64,000 nucleotides of DNA, taken from Dictyostelium discoideum. Lineage: Eukaryota. Location of the stretch: assembly GCA_000004695.1 (NCBI GenBank), contig CM000153.2, positions 4,672,001 through 4,736,000 of the forward strand, written 5' to 3'. Under the pieces are notes generated by a model. It did no database searches. It saw only the letters and a list, made by a program, of their open reading frames with translations, and was not told the DNA's origin. This document shows, one piece after another, positions 2,598 to 11,844 of the stretch. Positions within the stretch are counted from its first letter, which is position 1; the number at the start of each line of letters is the position of its first letter. The translations under genes and the position numbers were made by a program.

Positions 2598-3106
2598 GTT
2601 TTATTATTGCTTTTTATTGAAAAAGATGTAGACGATGTTTGTGATGTTTGTGATGTTTGTGGTGGTGGTGGTGGTGATGGTGTTTTTATTGGTGTTGTTA
2701 TTTTATTTATAATTTCATTTTGTTTCTGTTGTTGTTCTTGTTCTTGTTCTTGTTCATCATCAGTATTATTATTTTCATCTTGTTGATATTTAAAATTATG
2801 ATTATGTTGATGATTAATTTTATTATTAAAGTTTTGATTATTATTAATTATATTATTTTTTAAAGGTGTTTTAGTTAATATTGAATCTAATGGTGAAGAT
2901 TCTGGGTGTATTATAATATTTCTTAATTGGTCGATTCTGGGTGTTGAAAGTGCAAAATGTTCTTGTATACAATCAATACCAAATAATAAGGTTATCTTTA
3001 TCACTTCATTCCATTGTTGTTCTGGAAATAATTGAAGATATGAATTTATTGCTTTTGATGCTTTAGAAATACTAAAAGATGTTGAATTAATATTCTTATC
3101 TTTCAT
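737..3106 (-). CDS. Hypothetical protein, 789 aa, with long poly-Asn, poly-Gln and Ser/Thr tracts. Its N-terminal about 90 aa are non-repetitive.
   Basis: Single uninterrupted 2.37 kb ORF in 80% A+T DNA, starting at ATG 3104-3106 directly after an A/T-rich promoter region. The codon-structured AAT/CAA repeats are typical of Dictyostelium low-complexity proteins. No recognisable catalytic domain. Confidence 0.6.
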
Positions 3107-3218
3107 TTTCTTTTTCTTTTTTATTATTTATTTTTTTTTTTATATTTTTATTTTTTTTTTTCTATAAATTATTATTAATTTTTATTTTTATTTCTTTAAT
3201 ATATTTGTTTTAATCAAT

Positions 3219-3261
<43 letters not shown>

Positions 3262-3754
3262 AAAATTTGGAAAAGATTTAAATTGAAAAAAAAAAAAAAG
3301 CGCCAAAAAAAACACTTTTTCTTTTTTTTTTTTTTTTATTTTTATTTATTTTATTTTTTAATTTTTTTATTTTGAATGTTAGCATAAAAAATTGACGTGA
3401 ACTTATTATTAGAATTTTTATTAATTATTTCAAATAATATTACAACTTCAAAACACACATTAAAAAAAAAAATAAAAAATTAAAAAATTAAAAAATAATA
3501 ATAAAAAAAAAAAAATTAATTTAAAAAATAATAAATTAATAAAAAACAAAATGAATAAAAATTTGGGTCAAAATAAAATTTTCATATATATTAAAACAAA
3601 CAAATACATACATAAATAAACAAATACATAAATAAAAAAAATAAAAAATAAAAAATAAATAATAAAAAAAAATAAAAAAAAAAAAAAAAATAAAAAAAAA
3701 TAAATAAAAAAAATAAATAAATTAAAAATTAAAAATTAAAAATTAAAAATTAAA

Positions 3755-4272
3755 ATGGAAATACCAAATTTATCAGGATATTGTATTGATATAAATAAAA
3801 AAGAATATAATTCATTTGGTAAAGGAAGTAAAAGTGAAGGTGGTAATTGTTATCAATTAAACATTTATAAAGAAGTTGTATTAAAAGATCAAAAGAGATT
3901 AGAGGATGCACCAAAAAGTTTAAAGAATATTGATGTTTATGGTGGAGAGATTGGTGATTCAGAATATGAACCCATTGGATATAGAATAGGTGATTTAAAA
4001 AATAATATAAATGCAATCACCTTTTCAAATTTAACTATTGGTAAAAATTTAAATTCAACAACCATTGATTTATATCAAAATCAATATGGTATAATTTTTG
4101 AACCAAATGATATTCCAACTAAAATTTCAATTAATCCATTATCAAACTCTAATGATAATGATCCGACAAGTAAATTATTTTATCAAAATTTTCAAGATAT
4201 TCAATTTGAATTAAATCAACATTTTTGTTTATCAATTGGTTCTGTAATTTTTAAAATTATAAATAATAATAA

Positions 4273-4308
<36 letters not shown>

Positions 4309-5179
4309 TTCATCGTCATCATTTTCTTCTTCTTGCTCAACAATTGGAGAATTTTGTCAAATACCTGGTATTGAAAATGAATCAATTTATAAATTATTAG
4401 AACAAGATCCAATTAAATTTGTAAATAATTATTGTAATGCAAGTAATAAAGATTATTTAGATTTAAAAAAGTTTATTCAAAGATTACATTCAATATTTAA
4501 TCTCGTAAATTGGTCAATAGATTTTCAAAATTATCCAGCTTTATTATTTTTAATTTCAAATATCTATAGAGAAATTAATGAACAACATAAAGAATATCAA
4601 TTAGGAGTTGCAAAAAGATTAGAATATATCATTGAATTACCATTGATTTTACCATCAAATGAAATAAATCAATCATTTTCAAATCAATTATTAAATTTAT
4701 TTAAAGAAAATAATCAATTTCAAAAACCATTATTATTAAATTTATCTTTATTAATAAATAATAATATTAATAATAATAATAATAATAATAATAAATCAAA
4801 TAATGATGATATTTTTAAATTAATAATTAATAATGATAAATTTTTAAATTTATTTAAATCATTATTATCAAAAAATAATGAACAAGAAATTAAAAAACAA
4901 TATTATTTTACAACTAATATTAATCAATTTGAACCAATTTCAAAACAAATTATTAATGAAGAATTCATTTTAAAATTAGTTTCAATTATTAAATCTAATG
5001 GTATAAATGGTTTAATATTAAATAAAGATAGATCACCTTATTTAATTTTACCATCATCAAATTGTTTAATTGAACCATCAACTATTAAATTTGATGATTC
5101 ATTAACAAATCTTTATTCAAAAGAAAATCAAAACAAAACAATTAAATTTTTAGAAAAATTAAATAATATTAAAAAATAA
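3755..5179 (+). CDS. Hypothetical protein, 474 aa, Dictyostelium-type, with poly-Ser and poly-Asn tracts.
   Basis: Long ATG-initiated ORF that diverges from the 737..3106 gene, suggesting a shared bidirectional A/T-rich promoter at 3107-3754. No domain recognised. Confidence 0.55.
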
Positions 5180-5267
5180 TAAAAATTTAAAAATAAAGCG
5201 AAAGCAATCATGATGTTTTTTTTTTAAAAAAATAATAATACACAATATTTTATTTATTTATTTATTT

Positions 5268-7169
5268 TTAATCATTACCTAATTTTTTTAATTTATTTAA
5301 ACCAACTTTAATATTTGTTTGATTTCTTTTATATAATATAAAACCAACAATTATGAAAATTGTAGAACCAACAACACCAACAACTACACCTATAGTAATT
5401 TTTACCCATTCCCTTGATTTTTCATTATTACATCCTTGTTCATTTGTTGATGAAGTATGATCAATAAAAATACTAAAAGATGGATCCATTTGAATTAAAT
5501 TTTCATAATGTGGTATATTAATTGCTATTGATAAATTTGTTGAATTCGTAAATAAATATGAATTTGATAATGTTGTTATTGTACCATCAACAATACCTCT
5601 TTTTATAAAATTACAATTTAATGATCTATCATTTAATTTAATTTTAAAATTATCTAAATTATTATATATATTGATTGAATTAGTTGGACAATCATTTTCA
5701 ATTTGACTATCAACTTGACTTTGAATTATTAATTTCAAAGTATTTAAATCACTTTCAAATGAATAACTTGAAATTTCTATATTAAATTTTAAAGAATATG
5801 GTTCAATTTTAATTTCTTGGTTTGCAAATTTAATTTTATTATTAACATTTGAATCAATATCTTTATACCAATTAAATAATACTTTAATTTCTGTAGATTT
5901 ATTTAATGATTTTGAAATTGATGTTGAATTAATAGTTGTATTATAAAAATAGGTTTCAATTTGTTTGGTATCATTAATGGTTTGATTATTATATGACCAT
6001 AATATTGATTCTAAATTATATTGTTTTATAATTTTATCTTGAAAATCAAGTTCATTTAATGATTTAATTATAATTAATGATTTAAATTTTGAATTTTCAA
6101 ATAATTCTGTATTTGGACTTTTTAAATTAAATGATGTAGTTGAATTTTTGGATGGTTCTAAATTTGGAAAAGTGGGAGTTATTATTATACAATTCGTATT
6201 ATTATTAGTAAGAGTGAATGGACAATCACAACTATATGTACCAATTTTATTATTACAAATAAAATTTATTGGACAAGTATAATTATTAAAATCGCCATCT
6301 GAAATTAAACATTCATCAATATCAATACAATCACCTTTAGCATTTAATTTAAAACCTGGACTACAATAACAATCTGCATTGACTCTATCACATGTTCTAT
6401 TACCAACACATGGATTAATTGGTTGATCACAAAAATTAATTCTACAAAATTCATCAATTTGATATGCTTTATCACATAAACATTTACTATTATTTACACA
6501 TTTTCCATAATTACAATTTGGACATTTAAATTCTGCATACCAAAAAGTTGAATAATATGAATTTATTGCACCAAATTGTTTACAATAACCATTTCCATTT
6601 GTTTCATTTAAAACCAATAATGATGAATTAAAATTTGGTATGAAATATGTGATATTATTTGAACAACTTTGAATAATTAAATCTTTTTCAATTTTATAAT
6701 TAACTGTTTTAATAAAGGAATCACTTGAATTTAAACAATTTTTTCCAAAATTATAAATATTTGTAGTATAAAAATTTGAGTAACAATTTGTAACTGGTAA
6801 ATTACCATTTTCAATTGTATAATAATTTGTTCTACCTATTTCTGCGTATCTAATTTTAATTAATTAATATTTAGAGAAAAAAAAAAAAAAAAAAAATGAA
6901 AAAAAAAAAAAAAAAAAATTATCTTACATTGGAGGTGAAGTAGGTGTTATAATAGGACATTTAGGTTGAATTGTAAAGACATAGCTATTTGAATAACCAA
7001 TAGATTTACACATGACTCCTTGAATTTGTTCATTTTTTATATTAGAACAACCATAATTTGTATAATTTGAAACTGATGAGCATTGTGAAAAAACAAAATT
7101 ATTTTTGTTTAAGTGAACTATAAATAATAATATTAATATTATTTTGATATTACCAAATATTTTAACCAT
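5268..7169 (-). CDS. Type-I membrane protein with a signal peptide, calcium-binding EGF-like (cbEGF) domains and a C-terminal TM helix. Two exons: 7169..6928 and 6849..5268.
   Basis: Exon 1 (ORF 6924..7169) encodes the signal peptide MVKIFGNIKIILILLFIVHL and ends at donor GTAAGA (6927-6922). A 78-nt A/T intron ends in ttag. Exon 2 continues in frame as …PPIYAEIGRTNYYTIENGNLPVTNCY…LVLNETNGNGYCK… through the ORF at 5268..6617. Motif CIDIDECLISDGDFNNYTCP…GTYSCDCP indicates cbEGF. C-terminal TM ITIGVVVGVVGSTIFIIVGFILY is followed by a KRNQ cytoplasmic tail. Confidence 0.65.
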
Positions 7170-7455
7170 TTTATATCATTTAATAATAAAATAAATTAAA
7201 TGATTTATAAAAAAAAAAAAAAAAAAAAAAAAATTTCGTTAAAACTTGATCTATCTAAAAAAAAAACAATTTGGTTAAAACTTGATTTATAATATTTTCA
7301 GAAAAAAAAGTTTTTTTTTGTCAAAATTGTTGTCCTATTAAAATTTATAAAACATAAGGAGTCTCATATAAATTTTTTTAATTTTTTTTTTTGTCTAATA
7401 CATATATATTTTATCTTTACTAATTTCAGTCATTTTTAAACTTTCACCAATAGTT

Positions 7456-8028
7456 GTGCCATGTAAAATATGTGGCCAAAAGGTATCACTTTCTGATATA
7501 AAAAATCATATTTTAGATGAATGTATACCAGTTTTTTTAGACATTTATGGTTTAAGGCATCAATTACCAAATCAAAATGAATATAAATCCCTATTGGAAG
7601 AAAACAATAAATTAAAACATGAAGTTTACATTTTAAAAGAAGAAAATTCTAAACTAAGATATATATCATCCTCAAACTCAACAATTTCATCAAGATCAAG
7701 CGATGTATATCCAGTAGTATCAAATGAAAATAATGATAGCGAATTAGTAAAAAAGGAACCAATAGAATATAAAGAGTCAGAAATTAAATTTTATGATGAA
7801 TTTATAGATGTAGATTTAAATAATGATGCTTCAACATGCTTTTTAGCACAAACTTTTAAAGAAAAAAGTGAAGATGATAAAATAATTAATGTAATACATT
7901 GTCCTAAACCAGCAAGGGGGAGTTTAATAATTGATGTAATCCATGGTAATTATTCTATCACAGTGTGTAAATTTACACATTTTACAGAAATGAAATCATT
8001 GGAGGCGATTAGAAAAATATTTATGTAG
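7456..8028 (+). CDS. Small protein with an N-terminal C2HC zinc finger resembling the Rad18/UBZ4 type (CKICGQKVSLSDIKNHILDEC), followed by a coiled-coil segment. Start codon uncertain.
   Basis: ORF begins at a non-ATG codon. The frame stays open back to a ttcag acceptor at about 7423-7427, so a short 5' exon may exist. Stop TAG at 8026-8028. Motif C-x2-C-x12-H-x4-C matches UBZ4-like fingers. Confidence 0.35.
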   Translation: MPCKICGQKVSLSDIKNHILDECIPVFLDIYGLRHQLPNQNEYKSLLEENNKLKHEVYILKEENSKLRYISSSNSTISSRSSDVYPVVSNENNDSELVKKEPIEYKESEIKFYDEFIDVDLNNDASTCFLAQTFKEKSEDDKIINVIHCPKPARGSLIIDVIHGNYSITVCKFTHFTEMKSLEAIRKIFM

Positions 8029-8134
8029 TTTCCAAAAGGTGTTGGAAACTACATAAATATTGAAATTCATATTGGTTATTGGTAATCCAGATGATTTTAT
8101 TTTTAAATGATCTGTACATTTAAAACCACATACA

Positions 8135-9317
8135 ATGCATTTTCCAATTCTTAATGGATCAGCTTTATTTACATCTTCTTTTTTTGAATCTAAAGTCATT
8201 GGAGCTCTTAGAATTTTTAATAATACTAGTTTAAAAGTGTGGAAAAATTATCATGAAAGTAAGTATTTTTATATTAATTTAAAAATTTTAATTTTAATAT
8301 TTATTAATATTTTGATATATTAGTTTTAGAAGAAAAAAATAATAAATTAGTAAATCATACACAACATAAAATAAACAACATTGCCACAGAAGAAACAATT
8401 GATGATACAACTTCAAGTAATCAAAGTGAGCCAAGTAAGCCAAGCAAGCCAAGTAAGCCAAGTGAGCCAAGTGAACCAAGTGAGCCAAGTGAACCTGTTA
8501 ATGCAACTACAACAATAGAAGGTAAAAAAAGAAAATACACAAAAAAAAAATAAAAAAAAAATAGTAGTTTATTAAATAATTTATAAATTAATTAAGACTT
8601 CTATTGTTTTTTAATTTTATTATTATTTTTTCATACTAATATTAGTATATTTGTTTTTAAAAAGGATTAAATGATAAAGATTTTAAATCGTTAATTGGGA
8701 TTACTAAGATTCAATTTCAAGATTTATTAAATAAAATTTCACAAAAAACAAAAAAAAAGAGATAACAGGGGGAGATCAAGTATTTATAATGTAAAAGGTA
8801 AACTTATTATAACTATGATTTGGCTTCGTCATTATCTCAAACCGATTATTTTTAAAATTTTATTTAAAGTGAGAATGTTATAAGAAATTATACAGATCAA
8901 ATAGTTGAAATTTTATATTTATTATCTTTTGATAGTTTTAATTATCACACAATTAATAGGATTAATCAAAAAGCAGTTTTTATTAATGAATTAAATGAGC
9001 AATGTATTGTTACATCCATTGTGGATAGATCAGAGCAAAGATCAGTAGTTGCATTGGATAAAATAGCTAAAATTAACAACTTCAGTGCTAAAAAAGGATA
9101 TCCTACATTAACCAAATTCGTTTTTTGTAGCCCTGATGGTAAAATACAATATTTATCGAAAAGTAGAAATGGATCAAGGAATGACCAATCCATGATGTAT
9201 GAAGTTAGTGAATTTATTAATAAATTCGATGACTCTTGTGAACATATAATGGGCGATAAAGGCTTTCAAGGATCCGATAAATTATATTCTAAATTTTTAG
9301 TAATTTCGAGAAAAACC

Positions 9318-9369
<52 letters not shown>

Positions 9370-9665
9370 TAATAATAATAATAATAATAATAAAAATAAT
9401 AATGATGGTGATATAAATGGAGAATGTTTTGAACCAGAATATTATATAAGCGATGAAAAAGAATCAGAAGCAAGGTTTAAATCGATTAGAATAATAATTG
9501 AAAATGTTTTTGCTCATTAAAAAATATTCAATTACCTGTCTCACTTTTAGATTTAAGAATAAGATTGAATCAACAACTTTATTGGACTATCATCATAAAA
9601 TTTGGTGTGTTGTTGCATTTTTGGTTAACTTGTATGTTGAAATTAGAAAGAAAGAATAAACTCTC
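8135..9665 (+). mobile_element. Degenerate Harbinger/PIF-like DNA-transposon transposase gene (DDE_Tnp_4 / HARBI1-like) with host-type introns, broken by frameshifts and stops.
   Basis: Three exons splice in frame through canonical GTAAGT…TAG and GTAAAA…AAAG introns: 8135-8257 (MHFPILNG…VWKNYHE), 8325-8520 (…SEPSKPSKPSKPSEPSEPSEPSEPVNATTTIEG) and 8669- (GLNDKDFKSLIGITKIQFQDLLNKISQKTKKKR). An A9 homopolymer then shifts the frame into …NRGRSSIYNVKGKLIITMIWLRHYLKPIIFKILFKV (an HTH typical of Harbinger transposases). Downstream pieces retain …FCSPDGKIQYLSKSRNGSRNDQSMMYEVSEF…HIMGDKGFQGS (GS-x-hD and LGDkGF catalytic-core motifs). A C-terminal piece RFKSIRIIIENVFAH…HKIWCVVAFLVNLYVE is also recognisable. 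Confidence 0.55.
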
Positions 9666-10195
9666 ATATTAATTTAATATGAAAAAAACATTTTCATTTC
9701 AAAAAAAAAACTTTTTTTTCTGAATATATTATAATATGAATAAAATAAAATTTAATTTACCCCAAAAATATCTTACACAAAGGATTTAATTTTTATTTTA
9801 AAAAGATTTTTCGGCATTATATTTTAATCAAAGGGGCTGCCAGGAATGAAAATATCTTAAGCCTATAGAATTTTCTAAATTTTTTTTTTTTTTGAGACCA
9901 CCTTTTCCATATCACTCACCTTGGAATTTCTTTTTTTTTTTTTTTTTATTTTTTTTTAATATTGATTAATCATAGTTTATACTTAAAGGAAATACACAAT
10001 AACTAATAGTTTTATTTAGAAATTTTTTTACTTCATTTTATAATTTAGTTTTTCGATTTTGGTTTGAATTTTAAAATAGTGTTGTTGGTTTTGTTATTAT
10101 TATATTATATTATTTTTTTTTTTTTTTTATATTTTATTTATATGAATTGGTTGAATGAGATGAGATTTGGTCGCACAAAGTGTTTTCCGAGACGA

Positions 10196-10731
10196 TTTTT
10201 TTTTTTTTTTTTTGATATAAATAAACTATTGTAGTATACAATTAGTATGTTATTTTTATTTATTTATTTTAGGTTTTTTAGTTTTTGTGAATTTAAAATG
10301 GTATGTTATTTTAGATTAGGTAATTAATAATTAATTGGTGGTGTAATTGTTGGAATTGGTTCATAAGTGTTTATGCTCCATTCTTTTTTAAATTTTTTGA
10401 TTGTTTCGGACCATTGGGTTTCTTTTTGAGTTTTTGTGAGGTTGTTTTTAATTGAGTAATGGTTGAAGTTTGATAATGTTCTTGAATATTCCAATCTTAT
10501 TAGCTTGTGCCATTTTGATTTTAATATATCATAATCTAGTGTTGTGTTGTTTATTTGGTTGTTCCAATTATCAATTGATTGAGTTATATTGATGTCAAAT
10601 AATGATTTGCATAACCATATCCATATTTGGTGAATAACTAATGAGATTATGTTCCAATATGCATGTGTTCTGACTAGATCAAGATTTGTGTTTATATAAT
10701 TCCAGTTGAACCTGTATTTTTTATATTGTGC
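10196..10731 (-). mobile_element. 5'-truncated non-LTR retrotransposon fragment of TRE3 type (tRNA-gene-targeted, downstream-inserting), with oligo(A) tail and 14-bp target-site duplication.
   Basis: The direct repeats GTTTTCCGAGACGA at 10182-10195 and 10732-10745 bracket the element. Its 3' end is a T18 run on the plus strand (10196-10213), which is oligo(A) on the minus strand. It sits about 40 bp downstream of the tRNA-Ala 3' end, immediately after an ex-B-box-like GGTCGAGTGTTCGATTCTCG. ORF 10324..10764 is a C-terminal retroelement ORF fragment. Confidence 0.55.
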
Positions 10732-10764
10732 GTTTTCCGAGACGAGAATCGAACACTCGACCAA
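10324..10764 (-). CDS. C-terminal fragment of the retrotransposon ORF inside the TRE3-like element.
   Basis: 146-aa ORF with no ATG context, ending shortly before the element's oligo(A). It lies wholly within the TSD-bounded insertion. Confidence 0.4.
   Translation of the reverse strand: MVECSILVSENAQYKKYRFNWNYINTNLDLVRTHAYWNIISLVIHQIWIWLCKSLFDINITQSIDNWNNQINNTTLDYDILKSKWHKLIRLEYSRTLSNFNHYSIKNNLTKTQKETQWSETIKKFKKEWSINTYEPIPTITPPINY
10743..10762 (-). promoter_or_regulatory. External B-box-like pol III element (GGTCGAGTGTTCGATTCTCG) downstream of tRNA-Ala.
   Basis: GTTCGAnTC B-box consensus about 30 nt past the tRNA terminator T-run. Dictyostelium tRNA genes commonly carry such ex-B boxes, which are the landmark for TRE3 integration. 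Confidence 0.4.
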
Positions 10765-10788
10765 TTTCCCCTGTAAAAAAAAAAAAAT

Positions 10789-10884
10789 TGGAGAAGAAGG
10801 GTATCGATCCCTTTACCTTATGGAAATCTGATTATCGTTGCTGTTTATGCAAACCATACGCTCTACCATATGAGCTACATCCCC
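10789..10884 (-). tRNA. tRNA-Ala (anticodon UGC) with an apparent 23-nt intron 3' of the anticodon.
   Basis: Minus-strand sequence GGGGATGTAGCTCATATGGTAGAGCG-TATGG-TTTGCA-[TAAACAGCAACGATAATCAGATT]-T-CCATA-AGGTA-AAGGGATCGATACCCTT-CTTCTCCA. Features are the G3:U70 Ala identity pair, D-arm GCTC/GAGC, anticodon stem TATGG/CCATA, T-arm AAGGG/CCCTT with loop ATCGATA, and discriminator A, followed by a T13 pol-III terminator (10775-10788). Confidence 0.7.
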
Positions 10885-10930
10885 ATTGACGAAAAAATTT
10901 AATTAATAGCAGTTACCATATTAATAGTGT

Positions 10931-11768
10931 AATCAGAAACAACAACAACAACAAAACAACAACAAAACAAAATCAACTACAACTACAACTACACTGGCAA
11001 TGCAAGCAAGCATGGACCCAATTAAAAACTCCACAAAATAAACAAACACACTACGAACACCTCCCAAAATTAAAAAAAATATACGAGGATATGATGACAA
11101 CTCAATCTCCAGAACACAACAAATTCATACCAACTCCTGGCCAAAAAGAAATAATGACCAAAATTAATAGCAAACACCTTCCATTTAAAGAAATCAAAAA
11201 AATAATAAACATGAAAGGTAGAGATCTATTATGGAGATACACACTGAAAGCATTACCAAAAATATACAACATGCCATGCCAACAGTGTGGGGAAGATGAG
11301 ACTTCAGAACATATATTCTTCAACTGCAAAGCCCACATCAAAAACACACAAGAAATATTCAACTACACCCTAACTAAGTGTGGACACACCACTCACACCT
11401 GGAATGTGAAGATTTTAAACCATCTACAAATCGCACTAGTAGCCAATTTAATAGCTATTATATTCGAAAGAATCTGGCACAAAAGAAATAAACTCATTCA
11501 CGATGAAAAAGAAATAATAATTCACAGACAACAAGTCATACGTGAACTGATTAAAACACAAAGAGCTGCATGGGACAGGACACAAGCGGTTATAAACAAA
11601 ACATTAAGAATCAAATCAAAGCAACGGCCAGAAGAACAAAATAAATTAGACTCCTTAATTTCGGTAAAGCTATTCCAATTTAGCAGACAAGGGAACTCCC
11701 CTTTTTCCCCAAAAAAAATTTCCGAAACATTTCAAAAAAAAAAAAAATTCCCCCGGGCTTTTTTTTAA

Positions 11769-11844
<76 letters not shown>

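Follow-up and report, generated by a model that had tools for sequence, protein, structure and literature searches.

A probable fossil PIF/Harbinger-type transposon with a partly inverted, zinc-finger-fused transposase gene in Dictyostelium discoideum AX4

Canonical Harbinger transposons need a second protein in addition to their transposase (PMC9179366). Spy elements, described only from invertebrates, insert at AAA|TTT without a target-site duplication (TSD), have a D(79-80)D(44-62)E catalytic spacing and lack zinc fingers, and ISL2EU elements carry a THAP finger, an open reading frame (ORF) for a YqaJ exonuclease and a 2-bp TSD (both PMC4122938). For Dictyostelium discoideum itself, a review of its DNA transposons lists only Tdd, DDT and thug, the transposases of which resemble no known ones (PMC5633606). 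Here we describe a locus in a 64,000-nucleotide stretch of the D. discoideum AX4 genome (contig CM000153.2, positions 4,672,001 to 4,736,000; ~20% GC), called the window below and used for all coordinates unless another locus is named. The unit at 7287-9734 (an element of 2,442 bp with its flanking trinucleotides) is very probably one fossil, immobile copy belonging to a family of cut-and-paste transposons of the PIF/Harbinger superfamily in dictyostelids, a reading carried by its domain identity, its terminal inverted repeats (TIRs), the single-protein architecture and dispersed, multi-copy occurrence of its relatives, and the inversion and other lesions that disable it. By description the family lies outside Tdd, DDT and thug (PMC5633606), and the literature searched, on DDB_G0286597 (the gene annotated here) and on Harbinger elements in Dictyostelium or Amoebozoa, contained no earlier account of it, although Repbase may hold an entry. 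With only three DNA transposon families in the literature searched, the locus would give the catalogue of D. discoideum transposable elements a genuine entry of PIF/Harbinger type.

A sequence-only reading of this DNA had proposed a decayed Harbinger-superfamily copy with host-type introns at 7456-9665. In substance this stands, on a DDE_Tnp_4 match, TIRs, and relatives that are dispersed, multi-copy and TIR-bounded; only the extent has to be redrawn, to that given by the TIRs. An unrepaired single-frame piece (8868-9317) matches Pfam DDE_Tnp_4 (PF13359) at 39.9 bits (E 4.3e-10; family cutoff 24.8 bits), so that the profile match anticipated by that reading is significant even before repair, and the frame-repaired conceptual protein reaches 51.5 bits. 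The core motifs it had quoted, GSRNDQSMM and IMGDKGFQGS, are present in frame 0, with RIIIENVFAH in frame 2. AX4 keeps D, D and E motifs (SIVDRSEQ, GSRNDQ and IIIENVF), and, judging by motif position, the residues in DRSEQ, RNDQ and IIIENVF would make up the catalytic triad. They are spaced D(52)D(102)E in AX4 and D(52-53)D(64-72)E in its relatives. The stretch from the second D to the E contains an (AAT)n tract (~9318-9403) encoding poly-Asn, a microsatellite that has expanded in the AX4 copy. HTH_Tnp_4 (PF13613) scores 14.9 bits in AX4 when taken alone, below its cutoff of 27 bits, and is colinear with the HTH of relatives at 39-49% identity.

The break in frame that had been noticed at an A9 run is one of four frameshifts in exon 3, at A9 (8750-8758), at ~8866-8870, within (AAT)n (~9318-9403) and at A6 (9519-9524), and all recur in a second assembly. 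Since two of the four fall in the A9 and A6 runs, it might be supposed that the gene is intact and that its frameshifts are homopolymer sequencing errors. However, the separate assembly (L010, GCA_054883475.1) is base-for-base identical over window 3470-11653, thus across the whole element, and differs only downstream, so the lesions are not errors of a single assembly; moreover, the others (the 194-bp and 20-bp inversions described below, a 2-bp deletion and the frameshifts at ~8868 and in (AAT)n) are non-homopolymer, and we give the idea virtually no credence. Programmed frameshifting or transcriptional slippage at A9 was also considered and rejected, since relatives are continuous at this point and three further frameshifts follow. 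The newer annotation of L010 places a 292-aa protein at its positions 4666-6190 (window 8135-9659), over the frameshifted transposase region; this model, the frameshifted remainder of the transposase, must bridge the frameshifts by means of artificial introns.

Both introns of the sequence-only reading hold up: 8259-8323 and 8522-8664 join their flanking pieces in frame and coincide with intron positions in the gene models of relatives. The protein P0006 has an intron directly after KTWKSFYE, the counterpart of KVWKNYHE|GTAAGT at intron 1 of AX4, and P0003, P0006 and P0001 each have an intron 12-15 codons upstream of the HTH, the counterpart of intron 2. The segment 8135-8258, which had been read as exon 1, is only in part what it seemed: ~8222-8258 is genuine exon, and the 5' two-thirds, from 8135 to ~8212, is the antisense of an inverted coding segment. 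In the linker exon, ~10 imperfect 9-bp repeats (CCAAGTRAG)n stand in tandem at 8396-8512 and encode SEPSKPSKPSEPSEP.

The inversion becomes apparent from the 190-aa ORF immediately upstream (7456-8028), which contains a C-x2-C-x11-H-x4-C finger and is 100% identical to the AX4 protein DDB_G0286597 over 89% of its own length, a match that identifies the window as nuclear DNA of AX4. The relative P0001 begins MSELINFSPISVPCKICGKNISLSDIKEHILDECIP, with the same finger as the AX4 ORF, and continues into HTH_Tnp_4 and DDE_Tnp_4. When P0001 is compared with the window by tblastn, its residues 1-174 match the plus strand (7423-8022), residues 169-222 the minus strand (8226->8068) and residues 327-532 the plus strand again (8667-9278); residues 40-111 of P0005 also match the minus strand of the inverted segment, and minus-strand homology spans 8220 down to 8008. 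This plus/minus/plus order shows that the transposase begins with the 190-aa ORF as its N-terminal part and that AX4 has the central portion of the gene in reverse orientation; the corresponding segment is forward in L001 and L002, so the inverted state is the derived one. A scan of length-preserving de-inversions found no open frame, leading us to suspect an additional indel, which was located as the loss of 2 bp (CT) from the right-hand of the two inverted repeats at the inversion junctions, with a frameshift as its consequence. When 8019-8212 is flipped and the 2 bp are restored, there is no stop codon from 7423 through both introns to the A9 run (~376 codons), versus four stops when it is flipped without this restoration, and the de-inverted AX4 DNA is collinear with L001.

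These observations decide the fate of a further suggestion, that the upstream zinc-finger ORF is a second gene of a two-gene Harbinger, encoding a separate DNA-binding partner. It accords with the need of canonical Harbingers for a second protein (PMC9179366), and the AX4 ORF, ending as it does at a stop codon (8026-8028), looks separate. However, that stop arises from the inversion junction, and de-inversion fuses the two ORFs into one. Finger and transposase are on one polypeptide, within one gene, in P0001, P0003, P0006 and P0017, in agreement with the colinear tblastn matches; in P0003 (687 aa) and P0006 (641 aa), HTH_Tnp_4 and DDE_Tnp_4 are preceded by the counterpart of this N-terminal region, with a more divergent finger. 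Nor do the complete elements contain a second gene: the 2.26-2.44-kb elements have one gene each, the coding pieces of L007 all lie on one strand and make one protein, and neither L004 nor L007 has another ORF of at least 125 aa outside the transposase exons, the extra ORFs of L004 being only small and overlapping. Pfam scans of the AX4 ORFs and of the relatives gave no Myb/SANT match. We therefore regard the separate partner as refuted, with a negligible chance of being right.

A second, much smaller inversion has overtaken the start of the gene. The reverse complement of 7421-7440 matches L003 7994-8013, around the start codon of that locus, at 18 of 20 positions, where forward alignment is poor, and within it lies the ancestral start codon (Table 1). 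Because the start codon is inverted, the 194-bp segment is inverted with loss of 2 bp, and exon 3 carries four frameshifts, the AX4 copy cannot make transposase; in all it has at least seven disabling lesions, and as a dead transposon it is in itself unremarkable. Short inverted repeats flank both inversions, which offer a clear, compact case of inversion mediated by inverted repeats in an AT-rich genome. Within the larger one there is in addition a perfect 20-bp palindrome with a 6-nt spacer (8016-8035 / 8042-8061), the minus strand of which encodes NIYVVSN-TF-WKLHKY; it occupies the place of the distal FFCCxxC cysteines of the second finger and may be a further fold-back rearrangement.

The annotated gene model DDB_G0286597 begins at an out-of-frame ATG (7470) and contains a 34-nt 'intron' (7483-7516) that deletes the histidine ligand of the finger. 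It is a gene-prediction artefact on the still-open N-terminal remnant of a dead transposase. One might instead envisage that this remnant was exapted as a functional small protein as the rest of the gene decayed, given that ~200 codons remain open versus four frameshifts in the C-terminal half, and that gene callers annotated it in two assemblies. We consider this improbable, however, since the ancestral ATG is inverted, the model requires both the out-of-frame ATG and an intron that deletes a zinc ligand, and no syntenic orthologue was seen, L003 being a non-syntenic fragment; by our own estimate, ~0.6 kb would escape by chance, at the ~3 indels per kb of the remaining gene, with P ~0.17. The first zinc finger is also spliced out of the gene model at L002, as a 42-nt, in-frame GT…AG intron (6052-6093), the near-identical L001 model retaining the finger. 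The finger-removing introns of L002 and AX4 (7483-7516, again GT…AG inside coding sequence) are either a recurrent predictor artefact or a real exitron.

Alignments of relatives resolve the region upstream of the HTH into four parts: a C-x2-C-x11/12-H-x4-C finger; a variable coiled-coil or low-complexity stretch; a conserved CFL.Q…C..P.RG.LRIDI.NG…CK..H…IR..L module; and a KC-x2-C-x3-C…[FY]C-x3-C-x3-[FY] cluster with nearly invariant cysteines. We take the cysteine spacing of the last part to recall FCS/MYM/TRASH fingers; AX4 has lost its distal cysteines, reading NIYVVSN versus FFCCxxC in relatives. In Pfam scans of the AX4 ORFs and relatives no family came above threshold for the N-terminal module, the first finger giving zf_C2HC_14 (E 0.098, AX4) and zf_UBZ (E 0.19, P0001) below cutoff. 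Foldseek of the N-terminal model (332 aa, pLDDT 58.9) against the Protein Data Bank (PDB) returned nothing below E 3.6, its top match being the RAD18 UBZ 5vf0 at that non-significant value; no relative of the transposase emerged when P0003 was searched by sequence against the PDB, and a profile search with the N-terminal alignment returned Dictyostelium proteins only. In the metagenomic relative P0021, a CPFC…H…C finger is fused upstream of HTH and DDE, from which we conclude that the finger-transposase fusion is a trait of the family.

The UBZ4-like nature that the sequence-only reading gave to the AX4 finger goes no further than resemblance: the ORF and its C-x2-C-x11-H-x4-C motif are there, but Pfam (E 0.1-0.2) and Foldseek (E = 3.6) do not lift the likeness to significance. 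The spacing is that of Rad18-type UBZ4, and CKICGQKVSLSDIKNHILDEC in AX4 is locally similar to the RAD18 counterpart, CPVCGVNIPESHINKHLDSC. The AX4 finger differs from UBZ4 in falling below the Pfam thresholds, in its non-significant structural match and in its placement at the N-terminus of a transposase, where it would more likely bind DNA than ubiquitin. The N-terminal module as a whole may bind the element ends and so replace the Myb-like partner.

Searches with the repaired transposase found proteins of 37-58% identity in Dictyostelium assemblies (ACTFIY, ACTFIW and ACTFIR), in Cavenderia fasciculata (DFA_06849) and in Heterostelium album (PPL_01171), and matched no AX4 protein. In these relatives from Dictyostelium, Cavenderia and Heterostelium, a single protein has the finger, the conserved module with its second Cys finger, HTH_Tnp_4 and DDE_Tnp_4. 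Full-length relatives are 640-690 aa; the relatives as a group score 44-82 bits for DDE_Tnp_4, with HTH_Tnp_4 at 27.1-39.1 bits in P0001, P0003, P0004 and P0006. An exhaustive HMMER search gathered 637 related proteins, among which only the dictyostelid ones cover the N-terminal module. A more divergent subfamily (L011 and L012, encoding P0017 and P0018; ~32% identity to P0003) has the same order of finger, module, HTH and DDE, with a canonical FCSxxC second finger. L001 and L002 are 96-99.6% identical, lie on different contigs and are damaged differently, and a three-member cluster at >=90% identity is spread over three contigs. Comparison of the window with the flanks of L001-L003 revealed no shared flanking genes and no synteny (tblastx and targeted alignments were used, blastn being swamped by low-complexity matches), which rules these loci out as orthologous or empty sites. 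Being multi-copy and dispersed, with a deletion derivative among its members, the family looks mobile in other social amoebae.

Several of these copies show further features of their own. Directly after the truncated C-terminus of the ACTFIY copy, L001 has a palindromic insert of ~170 bp (~8085-8260; CACAGCTTTGAATATAGTTCGAAAC…GTTATGAACTATATTCAAAGCTGT) resembling a miniature inverted-repeat transposable element, and its left TIR tip (4357) is parted from the remaining element (5898) by ~1.5 kb of inserted DNA with another gene model. The deleted element L009 sits between two tandem WD40-repeat gene models (2776-3906 and 5513-6709). The 786-aa protein P0160 (ACTFIR_002183) has, past GDRGF, a C-terminal tail of unrelated sequence with a CCHC knuckle (CLNCGKSNHKVATCG) at its end, and looks like a chimera with a retroelement gag-like piece.

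In AX4 the whole gene is bracketed by an inverted repeat, 7287-7319 / 9702-9734, of 33 nt and 97% identity including 3 flank bases, thus bearing out the expectation of a TIR pair around the gene. No other non-homopolymer inverted repeat of the 64-kb window is as long at a spacing of 1.5-4 kb, the runner-up measuring 22 nt; in 20 first-order Markov simulations the maximum reached was 23 nt. Relatives have TIRs of 29-45 nt that likewise start TAATAA (Table 1). Together with these TIRs, the relatives speak to the idea, offered as an alternative by the sequence-only reading, that the locus is no transposon but a decayed domesticated host gene like HARBI1. Host-type introns, homologues across Dictyostelia and the annotation of the N-terminal part as an AX4 gene would all suit a host gene. 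HARBI1, the domesticated Harbinger transposase of vertebrates, is of the same DDE_Tnp_4 fold family. However, as a host gene it is single-copy, lacks TIRs and works with a separate Myb-like partner, NAIF1, whereas the dictyostelid genes are multi-copy, dispersed, non-syntenic and near-identical within genomes; TIRs bracket the gene in AX4, L004, L007 and L009, and are retained in an internal-deletion derivative. With the AX4 copy a pseudogene among them, domestication is highly improbable.

The flanks are less straightforward. Those of AX4 read TTGAT[TTA]..[TAA]TATGA, a candidate for the 3-bp TTA or TAA duplication looked for by the sequence-only reading: each trinucleotide is a TWA typical of PIF/Harbinger, but the two are unlike each other by one mismatch, and a 3-bp TSD in the AX4 copy is a tentative reading. 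The three complete relatives read CATTG[TGA]..[TGA]GGAAA, GAGTC[TGA]..[TGA]CCTCG and TTAAA[TGA]..[TGA]GTTTT, in each case a perfect direct repeat of TGA, which likewise precedes the left ends of L002 and L001. A Spy-like family, in which the invariant TGA would be the outermost bases of the element and insertion would occur without TSD, could account for TGA at 5/5 left ends (L004, L009, L007, L002, L001) and 3/3 right ends of relatives in constant orientation to the gene, for TTA and TAA in AX4 being inverted-complementary as in a TIR extension, and for the single-ORF architecture of HTH and DDE shared with Spy (PMC4122938). If the TIR is extended over TGA/TCA, however, a mismatch would result every time, whereas a direct repeat of TGA is seen without flaw in 3/3 complete elements; the AAA|TTT target of Spy was looked for at the flanks of AX4 and the three complete relatives and not found; and the spacing of relatives, D(52-53)D(64-72)E, is not the D(79-80)D(44-62)E of Spy. 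We think a Spy-like family possible but doubtful.

The comparison with described systems can be drawn accordingly. With PIF/Harbinger the dictyostelid family shares TIRs and a transposase gene that has introns and encodes DDE_Tnp_4 preceded by HTH_Tnp_4; complete relatives also show a 3-bp direct repeat at their two ends. It differs in having no second Myb/SANT-like ORF, in a ~330-aa N-terminal extension of the transposase with two zinc-finger-like motifs and a module unmatched in Pfam or the PDB, and in the flanking trinucleotide of relatives, TGA versus the usual TTA/TAA. Spy resembles it in its single ORF, its HTH and DDE transposase and its TIRs (PMC4122938), and differs in flanks (TGA…TGA here, TTA/TAA in AX4), catalytic spacing, fingers, which are present here, and host, here Amoebozoa. 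ISL2EU too has a Harbinger-like DDE transposase with a fused N-terminal zinc finger, but AX4 and the relatives gave no THAP or YqaJ match in Pfam, and have no second ORF and no matching 2-bp flanks.

In our reading, intact members of the family are elements of 2.26-2.4 kb with 29-45-nt TIRs starting TAATAA, 3-bp direct-repeat flanks and one intron-containing gene. Its product, of 640-690 aa, starts with a C2HC finger; then follow a conserved, beta-rich module that includes the second, FCS/MYM/TRASH-like Cys finger, an acidic linker, HTH_Tnp_4 and, at the C-terminal end, DDE_Tnp_4. We propose the following mechanism: the fused N-terminal fingers and the HTH would bind the element ends, the DDE domain would excise the element and reinsert it with a 3-bp staggered cut, and a separate Myb-like partner protein would be unneeded, making the transposase presumably independent of any such protein. 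The family may be a natural test of whether fused DNA-binding fingers allow a Harbinger transposase to work with no Myb-like protein beside it. L004, an apparently intact 2.4-kb element, is a candidate for an endogenous cut-and-paste tool, the laboratory strain seeming to lack the transposase.

It is important to note that several points weigh against the reading of this locus as a fossil PIF/Harbinger-type element, or against parts of it. The AX4 flanks give no identical 3-bp duplication, and TGA stands before every left end of relatives in the same orientation, so that it could be part of the element rather than a TSD. The N-terminal module matched no fold or family significantly, which leaves its role in DNA binding an interpretation of the sequence; the gene models of relatives are computational; and a TIR search around the single L011 and L012 copies gave low-complexity repeats only. 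Spy and ISL2EU were set apart by their published descriptions, and the statements on AX4 copies and on earlier naming draw on a protein search and on the literature. With these points in mind, a broader proposal seems to us evenly poised: that this is an uncatalogued dictyostelid lineage of one-protein Harbingers in which a fused dual-zinc-finger module replaces the Myb-like partner. Its TAATAA tips would be conserved between Heterostelium and Dictyostelium, and TGA would be invariant at either end; the lineage would have been active until recently in wild Dictyostelium and be extinct in AX4 save for this fossil, mis-annotated as DDB_G0286597.

Table 1. Features of the AX4 element (window coordinates) and dimensions of complete relatives
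Feature	Position or length	Strand	Basis or remark
Left flanking trinucleotide TTA, candidate TSD	7287..7289	.	Imperfect pair with right-flank TAA
Left TIR, TAATATTTTCAGAAAAAAAAGTTTTTTTTT	7290..7319	+	Tip TAATAWWKTCA common to L004, L009, L002, L001
Subterminal motif TCTCATATAAA (YCTCATATWAA), copy 1	7362..7372	+	Motif scan of window
Micro-inversion of ~20 bp carrying ancestral start codon (now CAT, 7431-7433)	7421..7440	.	Match to L003
Exon 1 part A: C2HC finger (7462-7524), coiled-coil/low-complexity stretch, CFL..RG.LRIDI..CK..H..IR module	7423..8018	+	Includes 190-aa ORF
Left 11-bp inverted repeat at inversion junction, ATTAGAAAAAT	8008..8018	.	Junction comparison
Inverted segment of 194 bp, coding ..LRAPMTLDSKKED..GKCIVCGFKCTDHLKIKSSGLP..NIYVVSNTFWKLHKY	8019..8212	-	Second Cys finger, distal cysteines lost
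Right inverted repeat, ATTTTTAAT	8213..8221	.	Reverse complement of left repeat minus 2 bp (CT)
Exon 1 part C (NNTSLKVWKNYHE)	8222..8258	+	Splicing, alignment, de-inversion
Intron 1, GTAAGT..TTAG, 65 nt	8259..8323	+	In-frame splicing; same position in P0006/L005
Exon 2: low-complexity linker with 9-bp (SxP) tandem repeats at 8396-8512	8324..8521	+	Repeat search
Intron 2, 143 nt	8522..8664	+	In-frame splicing; equivalent position in P0003, P0006, P0001
Exon 3: HTH_Tnp_4-like (~8788-8920) and DDE_Tnp_4 catalytic domain (~9009-9650)	8665..9659	+	Pfam, tblastn
Subterminal motif CTCTCATATTAA, copy 2, oriented as copy 1	9662..9672	+	Motif scan of window
Right TIR	9702..9731	-	Inverted-repeat search
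Right flanking trinucleotide TAA	9732..9734	.	End comparison
Relative L004, ACTFIW	2,401 bp		TIR ~45 nt; flanks TGA / TGA
Relative L009, ACTFIR	1,463 bp, internally deleted		TIR 45 nt, near-perfect; flanks TGA / TGA
Relative L007, Heterostelium album	2,263 bp		TIR 29 nt; flanks TGA / TGA

The motif YCTCATATWAA occurs only twice in the 64 kb, both times within the element, ~70 bp from an end and in direct orientation. Variants of it lie upstream of the genes in L005 (4885) and L003 (7945), and it may serve as a binding site near the element ends or as part of a promoter. To the left of the element, a ComC-like gene occupies 5268-7169 on the minus strand (ComC_SSD 68.8 bits, EGF-like repeats); with its start codon at ~7169, the left end of the element is only ~120 bp upstream, in the promoter region of this gene.

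To the right, a 96-nt tRNA gene lies on the minus strand at 10789-10884 (Rfam RF00005, 49.1 bits; ARAGORN reported none in the window) and, given its length, probably contains an intron. Beside it is a GC-richer block, ~10600-11800, of ~34% versus 20% GC. The two assemblies differ by an indel from window 11654 onward. A 225-aa ORF on the plus strand (11091-11768) contains QQCGEDETSEHIFFNCK and has no Pfam match; it looks like the C-terminal zinc knuckle of a fragment of a tRNA-targeted non-LTR (TRE-type) retrotransposon.

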